The notes beneath the pieces are model-generated. The model saw only the letters and a list, made by a program, of their open reading frames with translations. It ran no database searches and was not told the DNA's origin. A stretch of DNA of 39,499 bases from Folioceros fuciformis (lineage: Eukaryota). Position 1 is the stretch's first letter, and each line of letters starts with the position of its first letter. Shown in pieces: positions 5,070 to 39,499 of the stretch. A program made the translations under genes and the position numbers. Location: positions 374,975 through 414,473 of the forward strand of contig JBNGIO010006272.1 in the NCBI GenBank assembly GCA_049999805.1. Direction: 5' to 3'.

Positions 5070-5326
5070 CCTGGCACAACTTAGGGACGGAGTTTGGCAG
5101 AGCGGGTGTCTAAACGGGCGCGACAAGCTGTTGCCGTCCAACGGGTGTCTAAACGGGCGCGACAAGCTGTTGCCGTCCAACGGTAACGTGTGCGGGATGG
5201 TGTGGACCTGCGCAGTGGGTGCGAGTGGGCATGGCCTCATGACATATGAGATGCCGGAAGGCAAAACCATTTGCGCCGGCCTCGAGTTATGTGCCTCATT
5301 GCTTCGTGTGTACCAATAGCTCCTGC
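5070..5326 (-). repeat. Right TIR of the MULE, with an internal 39-bp duplication
   Basis: Reverse complement of 330-524. cgggtgtctaaacgggcgcgacaagctgttgccgtccaa occurs twice in tandem (5103-5180). Confidence 0.9.
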
Positions 5327-16129: not shown

Positions 16130-19100
16130 TTGAGCGAGATTGGCAAACCCTGTGGTAACCCAGAACTAATGGGAGCAAGAGTGTCATATTGACCATCCAG
16201 GCAAAGTGACGTCGCCCGCTGAGACCGAAAGTGGAAGACTCAATGCATCAGCGGAGTTGGAAGGCCTTTCCTGCACAAGACAGATAAGAGAATCTCATGG
16301 TTAACTGAGTCATATGCACCTTTGATATCCATGAGGAGCAGGGAGAGAGCATGTCGTTGACCCCAAGCCCTACGAATATCCTAAACAAGGAGAGCTGCTG
16401 CATCGCTTGTACTCCGACTCGGCTGACCCCCCAAATGACCAAAGGGAAGGAGACTATGATTATTCTCAACCAAGAAGGAGAGACGTGAAGCCATAAAACC
16501 CTCCAGGGCCTTGCCTAAGCAATTAAGAAGAGCAATAGGGCGATATGAACGGGGTAACGAATAATTAGCCCTATTGAGTTTGCGGGGAATGATGGTGAGC
16601 GAGTGACGCCACGTCAAAGGATGATAACCCAAAGTGGAGCAGGCCTGGAAGATATATAAGTAAAATTGTTTGAGGAGGTCCCAACCCCTCTGAAGAAAAC
16701 CTGTAGCCCCTCTGAAGAAAACCTATAGCAATAGTGTCCGGGCCTACTGCTTTCCAGGCTTTCACACCAAAGAGAGCCTGCTGCACCTCGTGCAAAGCAG
16801 GGGTGGGCCATGGGAAATGGGAAGCAGCGGACAGGGGAAGAGGAGGGGTGTCTGAAGAAGAGGGGTAGCAGAACAGAGGACTGCACACTTGGCAGCATGA
16901 GAGTAAGCAAGTGACCTGTCTCCAAAGAAGTGAAGACGAGGAAGCGGGCTTAGTGGAGCGATAAATCTTCCAAATATCCGAGTCGCTAGCCTCCATCAGA
17001 AATTTCTTCCAATGGTCCTTCTTGGCAACTTTCACACTCCGAAAGTACTCATTTCTAACAGACCGAAGCTGCAATATCCCCTGGAGTGTAGGAATGCGCA
17101 TGACCCGACAAGCCCGAGCAAGCCCCTTGTGAAGAGAGGAGAGGGTAAGAGACCACCAAGGTTTAGCACGGAAGTGAGGGTGTACTATGGGGGTAGATGT
17201 GGAGATGGCCTTCTGTAGAGATATTGTGACTTGAGCCACAAGATGATCAATCTGAGCAATAGTTTGAGGAAGCCCAAGTCCCACCAAGTTAGTCGAAACC
17301 TTATAAGCTAAAGTGGAAGAAAATTTGTCCCAGTCAGTAGCTTTGACATTAAGGCGGGAAGAAAGAGGAGGCGGAGGAGGGGAATCTGAACAGGAAGGAA
17401 TAGTAAGGAACAAACCAATAGCTTGGTGGTCAGACCCCACATCTAGATCGGGGAGAATATCACAGAAATCAACCAAGTTGCGAACATCCGTAGAAGAAAG
17501 CGTGAGATCCAAAGTGAAAGTGTTATTTGTAGAAGACACGAAGGTGGGGCAATCTGAGGGGGTGAGAAGAAAGAGGGGAGTAGTGTTAATGAAGAGAGCA
17601 AACTCATCGGCCACCGAGGAAATCACTTCATTAGATGCAGTAGATTCTCACAAGGGGTGATGAAGATTGAAATCTCCAAGAGTAAAATAGTGTTGAGAGA
17701 GGAAGTGGGCATGTGGAGTGAGAATGCGAATGGTGCTATCGGACCCAGGCGGATTGAAAAGGTTAACAAAGTTAATGACTTGGCCTAGACAAGAGACCTG
17801 GACACATTGGATATCAAGATGGTTAAAAAGATCCTAGCGGGGAGAAATACTACTAGAGCAAAGGCTTTTGTTAACATAGGTGAGGACCCGAGGACGGGAG
17901 GGGAGACTAGGAGAGGGAAGGATAGGAGTCCATTGCAGGTGAGAGAGTGTAATGGAAGGGTTAATGACATAAGGCTCTTGAAGGAAAAGAATGTCAAAGG
18001 ACGACAGAAGCATATTCAGAAGAGTAGAGATGACCACACAAGATCGGTGACAGTTAAGTTGAAAGATCTTGAAGGGACTCATGAGGGGCCTGGTCGAGAG
18101 AAAAACTTGGAGTTAGCTTCGAGGCGAGTAGGGCATGAAGATTTAGTGGCCCGATGAGATCCATGGCGGATGCAGGATAGAGAGGTTGCCACCTTACAGT
18201 CCGAAGCTGGATGAGGCCCACCTCAATTCAAGCATCGCTCCGTGCTCCTGTAGAAGGTCTGAGTGTGTCCAAAACATTGACATCGGAAGCATGGAATAGG
18301 GTGGGCATTGGGTACAAAAGGTGTCACCCGTAGCATGCGCCCTTGCAAAGCAAGGCCACATCGAAGAATTGCAAATGCAGAATCATCGTTGGGAAGGGAT
18401 ACCAAAACTAAAGAATGCCGCTTGGTAGAAAGATCCCGGAGGAGCCACCGAGGCTCATCCTCGAAGGTGATGTAATTGTCTTCGAGAACTTCTTCCTAGA
18501 ATTCCTCCATTGATAAGCTGACAGGGACATCATGAACCAGAATTTGGTGACGAATACATGGAGTTGAGACGTCGGAGAAGGATGAAAAAGCCATTGGGCC
18601 CCAAACAGGAGGTGTTGCAATAACTGTAATACCTCTCCACGATAATACCAAGCGACATGCAAAACTTTTGAACTGCTTGAATTTTATGCAAAACTTTTGA
18701 ACTGCTTGAATTTTAACTGGCCCAGCATCTGCTGCCAGGAGAGCCCCGTTAATTTTACCCTTCAAGTCCATGTGATAAATCCTAAGGATAGACCCCATCC
18801 TTAAATCTGACAAACATGCACTCCTCCATAGTTGGGATCGGTCTTGGGGGGAGGACTGCTGCAGTCACTCCTCCATGGTCTTGGGGGGAGGACTGCTGCA
18901 GTCACTCCTCCATAGTTGGGATTGGCCTTGGGGGGAGGATTGCCACCGTGAGAGTTGGGATCGGCCTTGGGGGGAGGACTACCACCGTGAGAGTTGGGAT
19001 CGGCCTTGGGGGGAGGACTGCCACCGTGAGAGTCGACCGCAGCAGCATAAGAGGAAGGGCGAGATACCTTGAACTCAGATTTGACTTCATTAGAAGAGGA

Positions 19101-19130: not shown

Positions 19131-19131
19131 G

Positions 19132-19282
19132 GAGAGGAGAGGAGAAGAGAGGAGAAGAGAGGAGAAGAGAGGAGAAGAGAGGAGAAGAGAGGAGAAGAGA
19201 GGAGAAGAGAGGAGAAGAGAGGAGAAGAGAGGAGAAGAGAGGAGAAGAGAGGAGAAGAGAGGAGAAGAGAGGAGAAGAGAGG
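19132..19282. repeat. (GAGGAGAAGA)n purine microsatellite running into an assembly gap
   Basis: About 15 copies of the 10-mer directly before the N-run. Confidence 0.95.
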
Positions 19283-20291: not shown

Positions 20292-20835
20292 GCTGAGGAG
20301 GCAGAGAAGATCTGCGGTACGCAGAGCATACAACGAGGGCAAAGGAGGTGTTACAGAGTATGGTTACGACCTGTACGAGCTTCTAGGTCTGGACAGCAGT
20401 GCGTCACAGAACGAGATTCGAAGTGGCTGCAAAAGCGTTGTCATCCGGATGTGGTTGGTGAAGCTGGTCATGAGATGTCAATTCTACTCAACGAGACTTA
20501 CGCCTTGCTCTCAGACCCAGATCAGCGGGCTGTCTGCTTGATGAGAAAAAATTAAAAAAAATGCTTGTGAAGCATAACTGTGAAGCGGAGGCAAGATTTC
20601 TCTGATATTGGTTCTGCTGTTGGTGGTCAGATGCGCCGGGATGCTGTCGACTGTCATGACTTCACAGGGGAGCCCCTCTATTCAGTTTGGGCTGGGCCTA
20701 TAGACGAACAACGTGCTTTCTTCGTTGACGAGTCTCGTTGCATCGGTTGCCTCAAATGCGCTCTAATTGCTCCTGACATTTTTTCAATTGAGAATCGGCT
20801 TGGGCGTGCTCGAGCTGTCACGCAATGGGGGAATA
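20292..20835 (+). pseudogene. Chloroplast DnaJ-ferredoxin chaperone (DJC76/CDJ-type) gene fragment
   Basis: J-domain YDLYELLGLDSSASQNEIR, then a frameshift at about 20420 into WLQKRCHPDVVGEAGHEMSILLNETYALLSDP (HPD at 20442-20450). After an intron: FTGEPLYSVWAGPIDEQRAFFVDESRCIGCLKCALIAPDIFSIENRLGRARAVTQWG. The distal CPVxCI half of the 4Fe-4S domain is missing. Confidence 0.8.
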
Positions 20836-21321
20836 CGAGCTCTCCCGAAGAGCAGAAAGCCAGCCTCCTTATGGGCACTTCAATTTCTTAGTGTTCTTGG
20901 CTGATGTGATTCTTACAGTATGTGTGTCCAAATTAACACACATGCTGTTAGAACGTCATAGTTAAGCGCTCTACACTACAATCGGGAGCCGGATGGGGTA
21001 CCTAGAGAGGAATGCCTCTGGTGCTAGTAGCCTAAGTTTACTACATGGAGCAAGTTGCCCGGAGGCGGGAGCGAGAGGGAGAGCAGGAAGTGCGGCAGCT
21101 CGAGGAACTGCGGGTGGAAGTGCTGGAGGCCGCGCAGCACAATTGAGAGCTCCAGAAGGAGGAAGCATGAAAATGCTGGAACGCGCACAAAAGGAGCGCC
21201 CGGAGGTCGGAGGAGAGAGGAGGCAATCAGGCCTGCACCTCCTCCTCGCGCAGAGTCGAGCACATGAGGAGAGCGCGAACTTGAAGGCGGGGAGAGAGGA
21301 GAGCAGTGCAGACAACACAAC

Positions 21322-23357: not shown

Positions 23358-26300
23358 TCAACTCGTACCGCCCCCATTTCCGTTTCTTGGAGTGACCAGC
23401 TCCCTAGGTTCTGTTGAAGGAGATTTATCATCGCCCAGAGGAAGTGTTCTCTTGGGACCATCCAAGGCAACGCCAAGAATCAACATATCATCCACGGATT
23501 GAGACCTTGGGATTGAAGAAACCACTGATGTCTGAATCCTCTGATCACTTGTTGAAGGCAACTCATCATCCAGCGGCAAAGTTCGTTTTGGCCCATCTAT
23601 GGCTACTCCAAGTAGGACATTTTCTTCCAAGGACTGGGGCATTTGCAGAGGAGGAACTCTCTCATCTGCAGCACTACCACTAGGAGCTCTGTGATTCGGG
23701 TGCATATATTCCTGCTTCTCTGGGACGCCTGAGGAAGGACCTTGCGGCCTCCATACATCATCACTTGCAGCATTTTCCAATCCGGCTAGTGAGTCTGTCT
23801 TTCCCTTCAATGATATCGGATCACTTGGTACTGGCGATAACGTATCAGCCCCCGCTTCTTTCATATGTAGCTCAGCATCACTCAACTTCACCTCTGTCGC
23901 CAGCACTTCATTCCCCGGTTTAGGTAGAGTCTTATCTCCGGGAGGCCTCTTCACATTCTGCGTCGTCTGCTCCTGGATAGTCTCAGCTCCTTTACCTGTA
24001 GTAATCTCCGTCCTCGTGACAGACTGTTCACTGGAATTCTTAGTCCCACCCTTCTCAATTCCATTCTTCACTCTCAACTTTTCATTGGAAGCTTTAACTG
24101 TGACCTTGTCCCCTGATGAAATATCACCATACGAGCCTGAGTCAAGAGGCCCCTCAGGAATCTTAGCTGGAGGCTTCTCAAATGCAGCTCCAAGAAGAGT
24201 AATATCTCCAGCATTGAGACCCATAGAGTCTAGACCCTCCAGCTGCGCCTTTGGAGCTGATGACTGGAGAGGCGCCTCGACAGCCGCTGCGACAGCTGCA
24301 GGCGTGGAAATACCTTTCGTGTCTGAAACCACTGTGACTCTCTCTTTTACCTCTGGCCCCTTCACATCAACACTAGCAACTACTTTGTCTTTCAGATCCA
24401 CTTTAGAACTGGAATCCGCCTCTTCTACTCCCAAGGAAACCTTCTTAGGTGAGTTGGATCTGTCGACCCCATTTTCAACAGACTCAGCTTTCACTTTCAC
24501 AAGCTCCTTATCGTCATCAGCACTAGTGGCAGCCGCTTCAACTAGGAGAAAGGGCCGGTTAGTCTCACTCCGAGCTGTAACATCGCGGAAGGGAGAGTGT
24601 CGAGACTCATTCTCATCCATAAGTCGCTGCACAGATCGGATTGGAGTAGCAAGACGTGCATGATGGTGACTGATAACCTTCAGAAGATCCAATAGTATCA
24701 CCTCCTGCAAAATTTCATGTCTGATGAGGTAAAAAACTGCAATAATCTGAAAGACAAGCCAAAATCTCTCACCACAAGCAGATTTGGGGAAGGCTTTCAT
24801 TGAGTGATCACCTTCACCCGAAGATACTCCTCAAAATGGGGGGTCTTCACAAAGCAGGACACCAAAATCTGTCATTGCAAATGACGCTCAGGATCAGGAC
24901 CTGTCACAGCTTCCAGGGCAAAAGGTTGGGAAAAAAAGGGAGCACTAAGAGGAAAGTATATAGATTCAAACACCACCAACCAAGAGTGCTTGATTTTCAG
25001 GATCAATGTTGTCAAAAAATACTCTCCGATGCAACCTGTGTTGCTCAACACTGGGGTGTTTTGCTAAGACTTTGCGCATGTCAGCTACAATGTGCTGCGC
25101 CCAACAGGAACGAGACACGCATCATAAGAGGCCATAGCAATTCCTCACGAATAGGTCCCTTGCTCTAACAAATTCCTCACGACATAGAGCTGCAAGATTC
25201 AAGACACCACTGACCTTTATTTTGTTGACGTCCAGGTGGCTGATGCCAAAATGAGTTTTAATTCGCCAATGGCTTTTTTGAGTCAAATTACGAACAACAC
25301 TGACAGTGAACTTGTGATTCGGTATGTGCACCGCCTCCCGATCATCACCCCTGATAACTGTAGGAGACCACCATCCAACATGCTGCACGACATAGGCAAG
25401 TCAACCCACGTGCATCTGCCTCCCCACCCCGATAAAGTGAAGCAATTGCGTTCAGAGCCCCAGAGCCGAGCCGAAAAACAATTTTGGCACACAAAATAAT
25501 CATTAACACAACCGCTACAGACATGGTGCACACCTCTACGGTCCCAGAAACTTCTTGACCTTCTATTTTCGTCTGGATCCATTCACTCTCCACAAATGGT
25601 CGTGTGGCATGTATCATCACACTGGAAAGAAAATTTGTAAAAATCTGAACCGTACAACACCAGAAGTTAAAACGGCATACAATCTCTGCTTACCGCACTC
25701 ATCCCTGCCACTGCAAATCAATTACAGCAAAATTATCCTTTAAGACGGGGAAATGAAACCGACAATTAGCTTGCAGGGTTCAAGAGAGAAAAATACCTCT
25801 CGACCAGCAAGTGTCAAGAGGACGGTTCCAAAACCACCGGCAGTGATCCACTTCTGGGTGGAAAATCCAAGCAGCTCCATGAACAAGCAAACAGCTGCCA
25901 CCCAAACTGATGTATAAACAGTATTCCCTATGAATTGCACTCCAACCTGAAAAAGAAATTCAGAGGATCAAGTATGTCAAGCTTAAAACGTGAAATCGAG
26001 CCCCCAAATTCCAAGAACAAGAAACATAAAATGGCCAGAGGAATGAGGCGGCATGCACGTACATTCCTAGCTTCTTGAGAATCTTGACGCTCCATCATAA
26101 TCTTCTGAATCTGCTGTGTAAGGCTGCAGCGGACAAGAAAACCTAAACCTGTTACTACAGATGTGATCGAGAAGTAGAGATAGAGGAGGAGTCCTACTGT
26201 CTACTTCAAGCCATCCACATAACCCATCTGATATGAGGCATCTCGACAAGTACGTGCATGCAATCCTAAGTTAGGAAACAAGATTACCTTGCCGTACACA

Positions 26301-32300: not shown

Positions 32301-32938
32301 GGATTACACTTACAAGTTCACAACAAAATCAACGTTATTGAAGCTACAATGATTAGGCAACAAGGCAACCTATACCATCTTCCACAAAACCTCTAGAGAC
32401 TAGCATCTCTAACACGGTCTAACCCAGACAGGCGTATTCCGCCATTTTGGGCTTCGTGAGGTTTTGGTGCTGAAAACTCGTGTCGTATATTTGCATTTTT
32501 TGTGTTCTTGCCAGGAGAACCCGAAATGTGGCCTAAACGAGTGTTGAGTATAAACTTAATTATGAATTGTTTCCAAAGTACTAGCAAATTTGCGGGTGTC
32601 ATTGCAATCAAATACATGACAAAACCTTGTAATCTGGCGGGTATCACGTAATTCACGTGTTATCGGATTCCATGCAAAGTCATAGGTGCCTGAGCGATAC
32701 CTCATATCAGTTGACCCTATTCCTCAAAATTATTACCTATCAATATCTATTTGCATTTTTCAGAAATGGTGGCAAAACAGAACACCATTGACCCGGCGCG
32801 GAACAAGCGAGAGTGCACCAATAGACCGGCACACTCCCGCTTGGGGCACATGTATGTTAAGTCGAAAACGACCCTTGACTTGCGCTAAATACAATAATTA
32901 TCATACCACTTTGTACTTACCACTTTTATCTAAACGTC

Positions 32939-34147
32939 TTACAAGTTTTCATTATTTTCAGGTGGCAGTGTATCCTGGTCGCGATTGAGGACGTAGAGGT
33001 TTTTGCGAATTAGAATCCTCGTTCGGGAGGGTAGCTGTTTTTGGCATGTCAAGTCAAATCCATATGCTAGAATAAAAGTGTCTTCAATGAATAATGTATC
33101 TTTGTGCTTCCAAAGTCTTCTGCTTGATCTGCGTCTACGATCGCCATGTAACCCTCTTGGCGAAGCTTCATGTGGTAAAATCATCTCTTCTTGGTAACAA
33201 CCCTCAAAGGCATCTGAATATTTGGTAACCCACCAGTGCACTTTGACATATGGTTTCTCACATGTAATATCTGCCTCTAAGACTTTGGCAATCCAAAACG
33301 GCCTATTGTCTTCGTGGGCCTCGCAAGGGACTGCAATCATATGCCCTTTTTCTATTTCGGTTATATCCTCGTTCAAACTGTCACGGTCGTCATTGAGGTC
33401 CGTCTCCCTACAGTATGCCCCCACATACATGTTTCTTCTGGGAATCTCGCGGATGCATGGATTGTGAACAACCATTTCATCTGGTACAGTAACGGGTGTG
33501 TTCAATATTTCTATTGCCTCCTGATTATACCACCGCCCTTTCGAATCAAGTTCTCTATCTACAGCGGAGTTTATAGAATGCACGATAGCCTCTTGCTCTG
33601 CCCAAATCCCATCCCACCATAAGTTCTCGCCTAGTCCTAAGTGTTGTCGTAATCGCACCTTCAGTTTTGATCTGATTTGTGCCAAATGATATTCAACGAC
33701 ATTCTCCGGAAATGTCCTTCGTTTTTTGCTCCTGGATTGTAGATGTAAAAATGGAGCAGCTTTGATATCTGTGTTCGGAATATGCTTCAGAAACTCGATA
33801 CCCTCATCTGGCAACCAAAAATTGTCTGTACAATATTGCTTCCCGCGCATCACTATTATAAAGCCCTGTTCACCACAGCTCTCGCTTGTGATCTTGAACT
33901 AGTGTTGGAACAAAATATTGTGCAGTGGGTGAATAGCAGATACATTCTTATAACCGGCTTTTCCGTAAGGTACAGGCCACACAAATCGCCGAAAGTCTGG
34001 CACCTTCTTCACTTCATGCACAGCTGGCGTAGGTGTATAAGAACTCTGCATAACAGCGATGAGTGCAAGTAAAGTCAATGCTTCTTTCCTTCCCAGAGCC
34101 GTCGAAAACCGAGAGAACATCTGGTCCACCTAGTCATGCGTGTACCC
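32939..34147 (-). pseudogene. C-terminal half of a DUF7869-like putative DDE transposase, with a possible SH3-barrel (Tudor/PWWP/BAH-like) tail
   Basis: One frame with two TAG stops: GYTHD*VDQMFSRFS (cf. GHTHEDIDQxFS), TLLALIAVMQSSY, VPDFRRFV, then GHMIAVPCEAHEDNRPFWIAKV...VKVHWW. The 5' part is missing beyond 34147. Confidence 0.7.
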
Positions 34148-35039: not shown

Positions 35040-38000
35040 ATGCCTCATATGCAACCAGAGATTTCGGAAGAAGAGGCACCCTACATTCCAGAACACAGCG
35101 AAGAGGAGGAAGTCGAGGAAGTGGGGGAGATGGCTCAATACTCCTCAGCGGAAGACAGTCTAAATGAAGCTCTGGAGACGCCCCGCAATTCCTACGAGGG
35201 TGTTGCATCAGAGGAGTCTCCTGTGGAGATCACTTTACCGCGGAAGAGAGTGACCCAGGGGCGCCGGTCCACCAGCGCACCAGGGCAGCGGAAAAGGAAA
35301 GCATTAGCATCTCTTGCGAAACAGCGGAAGATGACATCTGGTGAGGATGTTGTGAGCAAGCTTGTAATTTTGCTTTGGATTTGTTGCTGGCTTCCTGGAT
35401 TACGTTGATGAAACACTGACCGCTGACCCCGATGATACTCCTCCTATATGTCTCCACAGCCACATCTCCGCAGCCGAAACGGCGAAAAGCTGCAGGCACT
35501 GCAAGAAGAGGGCAGGCAGCAAAGTAGAAAAGACGGAAGGGCGGTGCAGTGTAGCAGGTGCAACCAGAGCCAACCCGAGCAGTGGAAACAGACATAGAGA
35601 GGTTGGAGAGGTTAGCGCAAGATGAGGACTACCTGAATGGGATCAGGAAGAAGGCTCATGCCAAGAGGATAAGGTCCACAACATTTGATCTACATGTGGA
35701 TATTTTGCATCCTGCCTCCTTTATCACCTCTGACGCATAGAAAAGGCAGGTAGACAAAGCTTGGATGAAAAGCTTAGTGAGGTAGATGCAAGCTGGCTCT
35801 GTTAAGGAAGGGATCTTGCCCCTCCTGTGTATGATTGATCCTAAACAAGCAGCGAGCAAGGAAGAGGTTTCCTTGGACAGGATCACGGCGCAGCAGTACC
35901 ACATGGGAGTGTTAGGGGGCAACCATTGTTTTGCAGCCATGCAGAAACTACATCAGATGTTCCCTGCAGAAGATAAATATAAATGGATGGAAGGGCATGT
36001 GTATGCTGGGTTGATAGAGGAAGAGATGAGGATTCTCGTTGTCGACCACAATGTCTATGCAGACAAGCGGAAAAGGATGGGGTTTATTGAGCAGGTCAGA
36101 TACATCCATGACGAGCTTGACATTTTCTTTAGGCATCATTCAGGAGAAGAGAAGCCACCAGTCAAGTGGACGTTCGACCTGTACAGGTTGCTAGGGATGA
36201 CTGACGAAGGTGGAGATCCCCATGACACAGAATGGGTGCAGAAGATGGTGGACAGGCAGACTTTGCCATATCGGGTAGCCAGATGCACAAGTGTTCTGTG
36301 GGACAATGTGGATAGGATCTTTAGAATGTGGGAACAGGGTGAGCTCCCAGAGCAAAAGAGCATGGTAACAGGCGGGACAACGAAGAGGGCAAAGGCGAAA
36401 AGGAAGACAGGAGATTTTGCCCTGCAAAGTTCTGTTACCCAGGTGACCAAAGACAGTAGCAGGAGGCCAGGAGCTATGCAGAGAAAGCCATGAAGAGCAT
36501 TTCAAGGCGTCCCAACAGGTGTAAAGGGAGAGGAGATGCTCATAGCGGTGACGCAGAAGGTCATCTAGGGGAAGCTTCATTTACGAGACATGGACACTGA
36601 AGTGGGGAAGAAGAAGAAGATACACCTCATCCAACATGCCTTCCGACTGGCAATGAAGTGCGACACATTTGAGGAGGCCAAAGAGATGTACCCGAAGCAC
36701 ACAGAAGACGGTCATCTCCTGAAATTCCAAATTGCCTTTGCCAAAGTGGTAAGTTTTTCCGTTCTTTTCTCTTGTTACTAATCCGGTTCATTAAGCTAGA
36801 GTGCGTCGGTAGATTGGCGCACTCGAGATGGGTGAGGCTCCTGTGCACTGGTCTGCCGGCAGACTTTGGCTCGAGCCTTTGGGCCCAAGTCCACCGGTAG
36901 ACCGGCGCACTAGGGTCGGCTCGGGTCTCGAGTGTGCCGGTCTACCCGCGCACAGGGCCTGCACTGAGTCGAGTGCGCCGGTCTACCGGCGCACTAGGCA
37001 TGCACTGAGTCCAGTGTGCTGGTCTATCTGTGCACTGGGCTGCAGTTAGTCCAGTGCGCTGGTCTACCTACGCACTGGAGCTCCAGCGGTCTTGAGTGCG
37101 CTGGTCTACCAGCGCACTTATGTATGTTCATGCTACAGTAGGGTTTATCGCTAGCCAGACTAACGTGCACCATTCTGGTTGCAGAAACCCTCAGAGATAG
37201 CGGACTTGGAGTCCCTCCCGAAGCCTTTCCAGGATTTTTCTATTCGGCGAAAAACTGGAAAAGGATGGAAGAGGAGAAATAGAAGTTGGCGGCAGCGGAT
37301 ATGGATGCAGGGCTGTCGGATTTCCAAGTTCCAGCGAGTAACTCGAAGGTCAAATACCAGGTGATTCGAAGGAATGTTTTGGAAATGAAGGCATTCCTTG
37401 TCAAATGACCCTACACGCTGGTATTTGCAGATCTGCCTCGAGGCTTACAACGACATGAATATGACAGGCAGATGACTGTGGTAGATTTGGATGAAATGCT
37501 CCGAGGGTTTAGTGAATGCACCTCGAGCAATATTTATAGGGTTATTCTAATGCACAGAGTGGACATGATTTCGGAAGCAAGGGAGGCTCTGCGGCCATGG
37601 TGCAAGAAGGGGGGCTTCCATACACTAGTATGGGAGAAGACGAACATACCCTCAAACGCAGGAGCAGTGGAAACAGTGGAGTATGTCACTATTGAAACTG
37701 CAGCTCACACAGAGGCCCAAGAATCGAAGGCTGCACTGTTTGCGAATCATGGATTTCTGCTCCCAAGGGTTATAAGGCATGGAGCGGTGGTGAAGAAGCA
37801 CCTGTTTCATTCAGTAGATGGGCATGTCGTCTCGCCTCACCAAAAACCATTGCTGATAAACATGTTTTCGTGTGAGGGGGACTGAGTGGTTGATGCATGC
37901 GCAGGCTCCAGGTCTCTTCTCCAAAGTGCAGTGAAGGGTGGAAGGCACGCGGTTGCGATTGATGTCGATGTGAGGTGCACATCATATATCATGTAGCGGA

Positions 38001-38374
38001 TTATCGGGCTAGGGTCTTTGCCTAACGCAGATGAGGAGATAACTACAGAGTCCTTTATGCGAGGCCCATCAAAGTTTTGGGCGAAGGAAGTGTGCGGTGA
38101 TGGGAGTGTGGATCGCAAGCTGATGGTGTTCAGTATGTTGGGAAGGAAAGGAGAGGTCATACATGAGATTGATGATAGGCCTGCGGAAGACCTTTACGCC
38201 ATCACTGTCTAGGATGAGAATTGCACTCTACCGCCTCAAACTACAAAGGACCCCAACTTCTCGGTGCTTCGGGTGGGTGCCGACGACTTTGCTGATACTG
38301 ATGCACAACGCTTGAATGATTTAGATGTGGTTGTGGATTCCGAATCCAACCAGGACGACCCTGTTTTTGTTTAG
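35040..38374 (+). pseudogene. ParB/Srx-like domain + beta-class N6A/N4C DNA methyltransferase fusion gene, 2 introns, disrupted
   Basis: Acidic/basic N-terminus, then intron 35341-35459. ParB-like block RQVDKAWMKSL...G..PLL...GVLGGNHCFAA (GGNH at 35915-35926). Intron 36749-37184 (GTAAG...GACTAAC...GCAG). MTase motif IV region TLVFADLPRG (DLPR at 37430-37441), LVWEK, SPHQKP (HQKP 37838-37849) and motif I region FSCEGD*VVDACAGSRSLLQSAVKGGRHAVAIDVD. About 11 internal stops and a frameshift near 37250. Confidence 0.8.
36799..37118. repeat. Array of eight 24-bp palindromes (consensus AGTGCGCCGG-TCTA-CCGGCGCACT) in intron 2 of the cargo gene
   Basis: Copies start at about 36800, 36842, 36888, 36931, 36972, 37013, 37053 and 37095. 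Period is 40-46 bp. Confidence 0.88.
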
Positions 38375-39499
38375 GGTTAAAACTTGACTTAATTTGAAAT
38401 TAGTTTGAATGTAAACTTTAAGTACTTTTAAACATTTGTGCACCGGTTGACCGACGCACTATATGTTTAGGAATGCAAAAAATCAAGTTTTGCAAAGAAG
38501 ACTCAAACTGTTTTCTTCAGTAATTTTGGTTTTAGTGACCTTTGCAGCAACAAACATATTCGAATACATGTCAGTGGCGTCATTGTTTGTGAAATCAGAT
38601 GATTAGTAGATAAGGAGCGCGGATCAGGACAAATGTGAAATGCGCAAAACGGGCTTCGTGGAATACACCCGTTTGAGTTAGACCATGATCTCTACTGCTA
38701 CAAGTACAGTCTCCCAACACCATCTTCAACAAAACCACCATAGTTGAATATCTTTGATGCTGAAAGGGCGGTGCCTTTGACCTTCCTACACAAACACACC
38801 AGTATGGCACATGCATCCCTAAACCAGGCGATCCCTAGTACGAGAGGTAGCCTCGAATTCTGTTGCACACTCACCTATATTTGCCCTTAGCTTTTGCAGA
38901 CTGCCTTCCAACGTCTCCACCAAGCTTAGACTATTGTGCATAGCATGCACCGCGTTTACTAGCCTATCCATGACGTTGCCTTCGCTGGTGCCTCCTTGTG
39001 CTGCACGTCGGCCTTATGTACATCAGGATGCACCTCACTATGGATGCGTAGGCGTTTCATCCTCCTGCTCTCCAGACAAGCAAAGCTCAGAGTAAATTAG
39101 TTCCTGACGCCGCTTGCACACCCTTGACGGTGGCGGCATGTTGGACCCTAAACTGCAATATGCACCACTGCCTCGATGTGTAACCTACCCAGCACCATTG
39201 CTTGGAGTGCCCAAGTGTGAACGAAAAAAACTTTCGGAACCCCCATTTTGAGCGACGGAATGAGCAGGTTGTGATTTTTTTTGTGAAGGGACAGGCGAAT
39301 CAGTTTAGTAGGTAAATAAGACCAGGGTGTTTATGCCCAAAGTCCCTCTTGGGCTTCGGGTTTGGGGTGTACTGGAGACCGGGACAAGGTGGTGGAATGA
39401 GCGAGTGCCTCCTTGGCCCTCGGGTTGCCTGTAGGTAGGTGAGTGGGGTATGTCCTTGGCCTTTGGTGGTCCGAGGCCCCTTAGGTCTCTATATATGCT

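Follow-up and report, generated by a model that had tools for sequence, protein, structure and literature searches.

The nearest described counterparts of the gene family reported here are accessory genes of red-algal transposons. According to passages of a preprint (bioRxiv 10.1101/2025.02.11.637652), PAG2 combines a PF01555 methylase with a SET domain and PAG3 combines a ParB-like part with a 2-oxoglutarate (2OG) oxygenase; tandem inverted-repeat arrays adjoin PAG3, and the carriers are Plavaka, Zisupton and Mutator elements. We analyzed a stretch of 39,499 nt from Folioceros fuciformis (assembly GCA_049999805.1, contig JBNGIO010006272.1, positions 374,975 to 414,473 of the forward strand; this whole stretch is called the window) and describe in it a decayed gene, at about 35555-38374, whose relatives carry a ParB-like module and a PF01555-type, beta-class amino-methyltransferase in a single chain. 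Our best explanation, which we hold to be highly probable, is that the gene is one dead member of a repeat family encoding ParB-like/beta-methyltransferase proteins, and that the DLPR motif in its methyltransferase half was inherited. Set beside what those passages describe, PAG2 and PAG3 appear to be the closest analogue: in both systems a PF01555 methylase and a ParB-like protein would be borne on high-copy DNA transposons, with repeat arrays lying by the ParB-like gene. They differ, as far as a comparison by description goes, in being two genes associated with SET and 2OG domains, whereas here there is a single fusion in which neither SET nor 2OG was found and the array is intronic.

Other known systems share some of these features. 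A fusion of ParB with an adenine methylase is known in bacteria; in the passages of PMC5512222 on Bce_0392 of Bacillus cereus, a ParB-type domain lies ahead of the amino-methyltransferase, as it does here. Phage ParB-methylases differ, with no sequence link for the N-terminal half and phage methyltransferases about 25% identical (tblastn with the stored protein P0006; such handles denote the proteins collected in our searches), and the ParB-type motif of the present family is GGNH, without a Pfam ParB match, unlike that of the bacterial and phage fusions. The bacterial enzymes CcrM, M.BceJIV, M.RsrI, M.MboIIA and M1.HpyAVI are alike in motif order, in fold (Z 18-21 to the model of the family member P0020) and in the initial Asp of motif IV; CcrM-type N6-adenine enzymes nevertheless have only 13-22% identity and read D-P-P-Y at motif IV against D-L-P-R here, and the ParB-like fusion, the spliceosomal intron and the eukaryotic host are features of the present family. 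Among eukaryotes, N4CMT of bdelloid rotifers and MpDN4MT1 of Marchantia are likewise PF01555-type enzymes of bacterial origin, and the N4CMT structure matches the P0020 model at Z 18.6, but both carry a (T)SPPY motif (for N4CMT, passages of PMC8885841), are host genes and not repeats, and are without a ParB-like half; N4CMT has a chromodomain. An analogy of another kind is offered by the m4,2C synthase of Thermococcus kodakarensis, which in the passages given of PMC11551388 has a DPPR motif, is active and retains activity as R208A: it too has Arg at the fourth motif position, but its family is another one, its substrate is rRNA and neither proline is lost. Parts of PMC4738411 report that land plants show few N6A-methyltransferases, and a passage of PMC8885841 states that N4CMT, the PF01555 enzyme of that paper, is without eukaryotic homologues. 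We found no description of the fusion family in the full-text literature searched; supplementary tables, which may list such proteins, lay outside that search.

The preliminary description of this DNA, made from its letters, had proposed a degraded beta-class amino-methyltransferase domain at 37340-37975. That region is part of exon 2 of the decayed gene, and methyltransferase homology reaches past it, to about 37185-38374. Every peptide string it had quoted is recovered in frame 2 of the plus strand (translated over 37220-38380): KYQVIRRNVLEM, TLVFADLPRG, LVWEK, SPHQKPLLINMFSCEGD followed directly by a stop and VVDACAGSRS, and GRHAVAIDVD. The beta permutation that it recognized is present as well, with motif IV ahead of QKP and then the G-x-G loop (residues 44, 181 and about 202 of P0001, the window read-through). 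Its impression of decay was also correct: the region contains two in-frame stops (TGA at 37406-37408 and 37883-37885), and the deletion guessed after HQKP is real, for alignment A1 has five columns there that are empty in the window and occupied in every one of the 14 other rows covering them. The gene comprises the following features.

35555..36748, plus strand: exon 1, the ParB-like half (ParB/Srx-type domain and helical DNA-binding domain), from read-through translation and tblastn matches of 57 stored proteins (35606-36766, frame +2)
35738, 35783, 36491 and 36566, plus strand: in-frame stops of exon 1
35897..35941, plus strand: the VLGGNHCFAAMQKL stretch, best conserved motif of the ParB-like half (consensus GGNHS..AR; alignments A2 and A3)
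36749..37184, plus strand: putative spliceosomal intron, 436 nt, GTAAGT ... TTGCAG
37185..38374, plus strand: exon 2, decayed, with linker, beta-class methyltransferase domain and C-terminal tail (tblastn matches over 37163-38194)
37235..37239, plus strand: T run, one base short in this copy, at which frame 0 (LPKPFQDF) passes into frame 2 (FYSAKNWKRMEEEK)
37406, 37883, 37994 and 38210, plus strand: stops of exon 2, in addition to the one frame shift
37406..37408, plus strand: in-frame TGA, opposite Arg or Lys of the relatives
37430..37447, plus strand: motif IV, DLPRGL (GAT CTG CCT CGA GGC TTA)
37832..37852, plus strand: SPHQKPL (SPYQKP in the family), followed by the five-residue gap against all relatives (alignment A1)
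37883..37885, plus strand: in-frame TGA, opposite the conserved Trp of the family (GDW)
37886..37915, plus strand: motif I, VVDACAGSRS (V.D.CSGSGS/T in the family), source of the PF01555 and 2zie matches (alignment A1)

We read 36749-37184 as a conserved intron because of three observations: the spliced gene model P0005 matches on both sides of it and leaves it out (residues 138-477 on 35777-36748 and residues 480-760 on 37202-38002, by tblastn), plain open reading frame (ORF) proteins of short contigs end just past 36748 or start just before the second half, and annotated proteins exist in which both halves are fused. P0004, which ends in ...FQLQFNGVVSS, has VVS as the expected reading of GTG GTA AGT. 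The product of the intact gene is a single chain of about 670-790 residues, in which a ParB-like module is followed by an intron-split linker and a C-terminal beta-class methyltransferase. In the window copy, the read-through of 35552-37990 is 813 codons long and has 15 stops, four in exon 1, six in the intron and two in exon 2, the others being one that opens it at 35552 and two early in exon 2 that lie outside the coding frame there; the stops at 37994 and 38210 fall beyond it. Across the T run, the joined LPKPFQDF/FYSAKNWKRMEEEK reading matches the LPSTFQEHITKAKAW of P0007 position for position, and towards the C-terminus the LP..DEE and VVVDSES stretches of exon 2 resemble P0007, P0006, P0020 and P0081.

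Homologues were sought with phmmer, using the read-through with X at each stop as query against 1.84 billion representative proteins. There were 77 proteins at E <= 1e-3, 25 of them at E <= 1e-10 and 2 at E <= 1e-30; some matches lay within the leading 400 residues of the query, others within its last 270, and several proteins of 670-790 residues (P0005, P0013 and P0006, for example) covered both halves. When 78 stored proteins were compared with the 39.5-kb window by tblastn, all matches fell within 35606-38194 and in one frame, the best being P0004 (E 4e-47) and then P0009 (E 1e-27) for the first half and P0007 (E 4e-32), P0008 (E 2e-30) and P0020 (E 2e-26), over 255-313 residues, for the second. 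A word-based homology search with the window's own piece gave no match, a search with an alignment of the DLPR clade gained only P0081 and one bacterial-type enzyme, and scans of metagenome contigs for related loci gave no confirmed locus. Annotated proteins of Chara braunii, Ginkgo biloba, Adiantum nelumboides and Riccia sorocarpa combine both halves. An annotated family member also occurs in a sea cucumber, Holothuria leucospilota (P0083, in the cluster of P0034). By these sequence matches the family appears not to be confined to streptophytes, its distribution being patchy: Chara, a liverwort, a fern, Ginkgo and a sea cucumber. The Chara protein P0003, of 1825 residues, has two complete ParB-like/methyltransferase units in tandem, one with DFPYG and one with DLPYG; probably these are two adjacent copies merged by gene prediction.

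The assignment of the second half to the beta-class amino-methyltransferases, which the preliminary description had made, is upheld by the family as a whole. A profile built from 20 methyltransferase halves matches CcrM (E 1.8e-12), M.RsrI (6.6e-12), M1.HpyAVI (1.8e-11), M.MboIIA (2e-10) and M.BceJIV (6.7e-10), and 4mC (N4-methylcytosine) enzymes more weakly, with N4CMT at 1.5e-6 and M.PvuII at 1.2e-4. The D-I-P-Y-G of the family aligns with the DPPY of CcrM, and the order of motifs is the same as in CcrM and RsrI. PF01555 itself is passed by 9 of the 14 relatives scanned, among them P0006 (65.7 bits), P0008 (50.1), P0020 (47.3) and P0007 (30.0), and against solved structures the window piece finds one methylase, at E 0.11. 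The fold, which is Rossmann-like, was judged on the clade member P0020 and not on the broken window copy. Its AlphaFold model (predicted local distance difference test [pLDDT] 80.7; predicted template modeling score 0.83) retrieves CcrM with Foldseek at E 1e-13 and, with VIA-align, reaches Z 20.9 to CcrM and M.BceJIV over 219-223 residues; the comparison with M.RsrI-type enzymes that had been proposed as a check yields Z 18-21. Beta-class enzymes of both the N6A and the N4C type score Z 17-21 against this model, differing from each other by no more than 3 Z units, and METTL3 scores about 12.9. On this predicted model we regard the beta-class fold of the family, dependent on S-adenosylmethionine (SAM), as settled. 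Clade members keep motif I (GSGS/T), YQKP and the acidic residue of AVDVD; the SAM loop of the window copy reads AGSRS, its second Gly replaced by Arg, where intact clade members read SGSGS/T or AGAGS.

Motif IV was legible in about 32 of the stored proteins, in the following forms.

DLPRG, five proteins: P0007, P0008, P0020, P0022 and P0049
D-(F/I/A/V/L/P)-P-Y-G, 20 proteins, with DPPY solely in P0035
DIPHG, one protein: P0006 of Ginkgo
DFPCG, two proteins
DIPFG, DIPST, YIPYG and DALYG, one protein each

The (D/N/S)-P-P-(Y/F/W) form does not occur in the window or in the five DLPRG relatives, which retain the Asp and the second Pro, and S-P-P-Y was found at motif IV in none of the 80 proteins scanned. 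A tree inferred by maximum likelihood from 28 methyltransferase-domain rows unites the five full-length DLPRG rows, the window among them, in one clade (support 99/96), the sister of which is made up of the Ginkgo DIPHG row and the fern DAPYG rows (82/82); 14 short rows stood outside the tree, among them P0049 with its DLPRG and two proteins that start after motif IV and are clade relatives by alignment, P0029 and P0081. The six DLPR rows are 28-55% identical in pairs and have 17 invariant columns among the 98 they share, DLPRGL being the sole invariant run of more than one residue. P0007 and P0008 also have a D-W-P-x-G upstream of their DLPRG. Because the motif marks a single clade and DLPRGL is unchanged at 28-55% identity, DLPR is old, inherited and conserved across the subfamily and not a local CpG change. 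What sets the clade apart is therefore the replacement of Tyr by Arg at position 4, and not one of Pro by Leu at position 2; it possibly passed through His, as in the Ginkgo row.

The window copy is dead and does nothing. It is read as a dead copy of a repeat family because hundreds of related contigs were found, most of them without its two stops. These are Logan contigs from three DNA runs (X1, X2 and X3) of one sample, compared with 35200-38500 at a likeness of at least 80%; the sample is possibly that of the window assembly, so they speak for a repeat family in the genome and are no independent confirmation of the window. The three runs placed 773, 851 and 517 contigs on this interval at 80-100% likeness, and those of X1 divide into 105 at >= 99%, 134 at 95-99%, 272 at 90-95% and 262 below 90%. 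Position 37406, where the window has the first letter of a TGA, reads C in 195.5 of a depth of 216 in X1 (14 contigs) and in 163.8 of 163.8 in X2; position 37885, the last letter of the other TGA, reads G in 229.3 of 244.5 in X1 (16 contigs) and in 405.6 of 424.1 in X2. At 37234-37238, most of the depth of the other copies has one extra base. By these contigs, the two stops and the frame shift are therefore private to the window copy or to few copies. From a further run, presumed to be RNA, no contig was placed on the interval, a result that carries no information on expression. The commonest changes among the related contigs are C>T and G>A. In contrast to X1 and X2, run X3 has C>T far in excess of every other change, in places at several neighboring positions in a row, and looks like a converted (bisulfite-type) library.

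The first half of the protein was assigned through a relative, P0012, that is 24% identical to the window exon. Its predicted model (pLDDT 86.8) retrieves ParB, Noc, Spo0J and KorB with Foldseek, the best at E 4e-5, and VIA-align places it on Caulobacter ParB 7bm8 at Z 11.3 (99 residues, root-mean-square deviation 2.3), on KorB at Z 10.1 over 200 residues and on pNOB8 ParB at Z 9.6 over 202; the helical part aligns with the DNA-binding domain of Noc (Z 5.6), and sulfiredoxins score Z 7-8. In the best conserved motif of this half, the VLGGNHCFAAMQKL stretch, the G, H and A are nearly invariant (alignments A2 and A3), and the motif, GGNH(S)..A(R), sits at what we take to be the place of the arginine-rich box of ParB. 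Among domains of other names, DUF6551 gave a weak match in three members (best E 0.019). DUF3723, an Atlas lead for the ParB-like exon, was set aside, as Pfam gave no confirmation of it.

The intron holds an array of palindromes. A search allowing up to 3 mismatches found nine places in the window, six of them intronic, against none expected from 100 shuffles, and all nine fall in 35259-38459. Tandem Repeats Finder gives 4.7 copies of a 41-bp unit at 36928-37118, and joints in related contigs indicate that array length varies among other copies. These palindromes, and the features that may bear on the limits of the element, are as follows.

36801..37117, no strand: array of the 24-bp palindrome AGTGCGCYGGT-CT-ACCRGCGCACT, period 41 bp, within the intron
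35259..35280, no strand: isolated palindrome upstream of the ParB-like exon, with 2 mismatches
38438..38459, no strand: isolated palindrome just beyond the coding end, with 3 mismatches
32813..32836, no strand: degenerate tenth palindrome, a possible left limit of the element (inverted-repeat pair I6; alignment A7)
32942..34129, minus strand: ORFs with a partial DUF7869 match (PF25273, 38.7-45.7 bits against a cut-off of 26; match at 33902-34129)

The depth of related contigs falls to 23-57 at 38419-38500, around the last palindrome. The gene copy is probably carried by a DNA transposon. Upstream of the ParB-methyltransferase gene and head to head with it, the DUF7869-matching ORFs contain a GYTHD.VDQMFS stretch, and possibly they represent a transposase-like gene belonging to this element; they gave no match besides DUF7869, which was not mentioned in the literature searched, and for a minus-strand ORF of 319 residues, Atlas and homology searches gave nothing firm.

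Elsewhere in the window are minus-strand exons of an MSL2_3 mechanosensitive channel (25125-25967; PF25237, 92 bits), a plus-strand 4Fe-4S ferredoxin-like piece (20571-20888; PF13370, 39.6 bits) and a minus-strand fragment of a long interspersed nuclear element (LINE) with an endonuclease-reverse transcriptase domain (16574-17647; PF14529, 28.5 bits); the MSL2/3-type, ferredoxin-like and LINE pieces fit a streptophyte genome. At 877-1872 there is a satellite of some 4-6 copies, its period close to 169 bp, which is broken near 1186 by a few N. Inverted repeats of about 165 nt at 330-494 and 5161-5326, 94-96% complementary and with 4.7 kb between them, are probably those of another DNA transposon. 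At 19131-19282, a perfect 10-bp microsatellite (GGAGAAGAGA, 15 copies) stands in a low-complexity stretch in which several frames are free of stops.

How an intact member might work can be proposed from these parts. The ParB-like half would bring the protein to the 24-bp palindromes in and around its own gene, and the methyltransferase half would then bind SAM and modify the DNA of the element itself at an exocyclic amino group (N6 of adenine or N4 of cytosine). We give the targeting of palindromes by the ParB-like half somewhat less than an even chance. Of the DLPR subfamily we predict that SAM binding is likely to be retained, and that catalysis, now that Arg has replaced the stacking Tyr, stands at roughly even odds. 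A broader extension, which we think unlikely but worth stating, is that these are self-marking mobile elements of a class not yet described, in land plants, charophytes and at least one echinoderm, in which the fusion would load onto its own parS-like arrays and write 6mA (N6-methyladenine) or 4mC, and in which the change from Tyr to Arg might give the DLPR subfamily a new substrate or chemistry.

Several observations weigh against the explanation we prefer. For the methyltransferase half, the window piece scores 17.0 bits (E 0.0062) against PF01555, below the cut-off of 26.7, and only over its last 40 residues, at the motif I end. For the ParB-like half, no Pfam ParB family is found at E <= 0.1 in any member, the N-terminal profile (alignment A2) has no match among PDB sequences, and the assignment depends on a single predicted model, that of a relative with 24% identity to the window. 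The database proteins of the DLPR clade all come from short contigs and are without the ParB half, so within this clade the fusion is seen only in the window; we attribute the lack to plain ORF callers, which split the gene at the intron. The connection between palindromes and gene comes from one locus plus the related contigs. The depth of a contig is not a copy number, and the three DNA runs are one sample. At the locus, terminal inverted repeats, a target-site duplication and a recognized transposase were not found, the partial DUF7869 match next door being the only candidate.

Among the alternatives, the one that we take most seriously, although we think it distinctly less probable than not, is that intact proteins of the DLPR clade are catalytically dead and serve as SAM- or DNA-binding readers, as targeting subunits or as partners of an active paralogue, the role that METTL14 has beside METTL3. 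Arg replaces the motif IV aromatic residue in all six clade rows; N4CMT loses its activity when Ala takes the place of the Ser and Tyr of SPPY (passages of PMC8885841); inactive methyltransferase domains are known from METTL14 and from DIRS1 retrotransposons (parts of PMC4738411); and the D-x-P-Y-G members of the same family could supply the activity. Yet the clade retains the Asp, the Pro and the SAM loop at 28-55% identity, and DLPRGL is its best conserved block, which is how an active site in use would look, while the exocyclic-amino methyltransferase with DPPR described in passages of PMC11551388 is active without needing its Arg. The preliminary description had offered another origin for the motif, in which the Leu codon CTG arose from CCG by CpG deamination and the ancestor read DPPR, DLPR being a decay product of this lineage. 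Such a change is a valid CpG transition, and the window copy does show others of this type, with TGA at 37406 where CGA stands in other copies and with C>T and G>A in excess in the comparison with the related contigs. The idea is contradicted, however, by the relatives: DLPRG is unchanged in five proteins of 28-55% identity, Leu occurring in five of five within a well-supported single clade; sister groups read DIPHG, DAPYG and the like; and, apart from P0035 with its single Pro, the roughly 32 readable members have a hydrophobic residue (F, I, A, V or L) at position 2. Among the best 40 of 919 variant rows from the related contigs there is no majority difference at 37430-37447, but these 40 do not include 37430-37447, and minority variants of the motif may exist in other copies. 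We consider this origin very improbable.

What carries the family is a separate matter. It might belong to an integrated virus-like element, or be a host gene family, and not travel on a cut-and-paste transposon: ParB beside a methyltransferase is typical of phages and plasmids, the distribution is patchy, and neither transposase nor terminal repeats were recognized at the locus. We nevertheless judge this improbable, since a conserved spliceosomal intron divides the gene in distant members, hundreds of diverged contigs from one organism match it, a scan of viral contigs with the methyltransferase alignment gave only an unrelated phage enzyme that adjoins a DNA polymerase and has no ParB half, and tblastn of the ParB-like half against phages gave no match; the nearest described analogues, moreover, are those carried by Plavaka, Zisupton and Mutator transposons in the passages available of the preprint (bioRxiv 10.1101/2025.02.11.637652). 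That the resemblance to methyltransferases is due to chance in a noncoding repeat, to which the subthreshold Pfam score of the window piece and the empty word-based search might lend color, has a negligible probability: the phmmer and tblastn E-values refute it, reaching 4e-32 over more than 250 residues with independent proteins, and all conserved blocks of the family align.

The methylation of DNA to 6mA or 4mC is a matter of dispute for plants and animals, and credible enzymes that would write these marks are few. The dead copy in Folioceros fuciformis points to a family of PF01555-type/ParB-like fusions that is multicopy in the source genome. Its members are natural candidates for assay, and they amount to a natural experiment on the catalytic loop, with D-x-P-Y in some and a conserved D-L-P-R in others. 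If the unlikely extension to self-marking elements were true, it would mean transposon-borne amino-methylation in a lineage thought to be poor in such enzymes.

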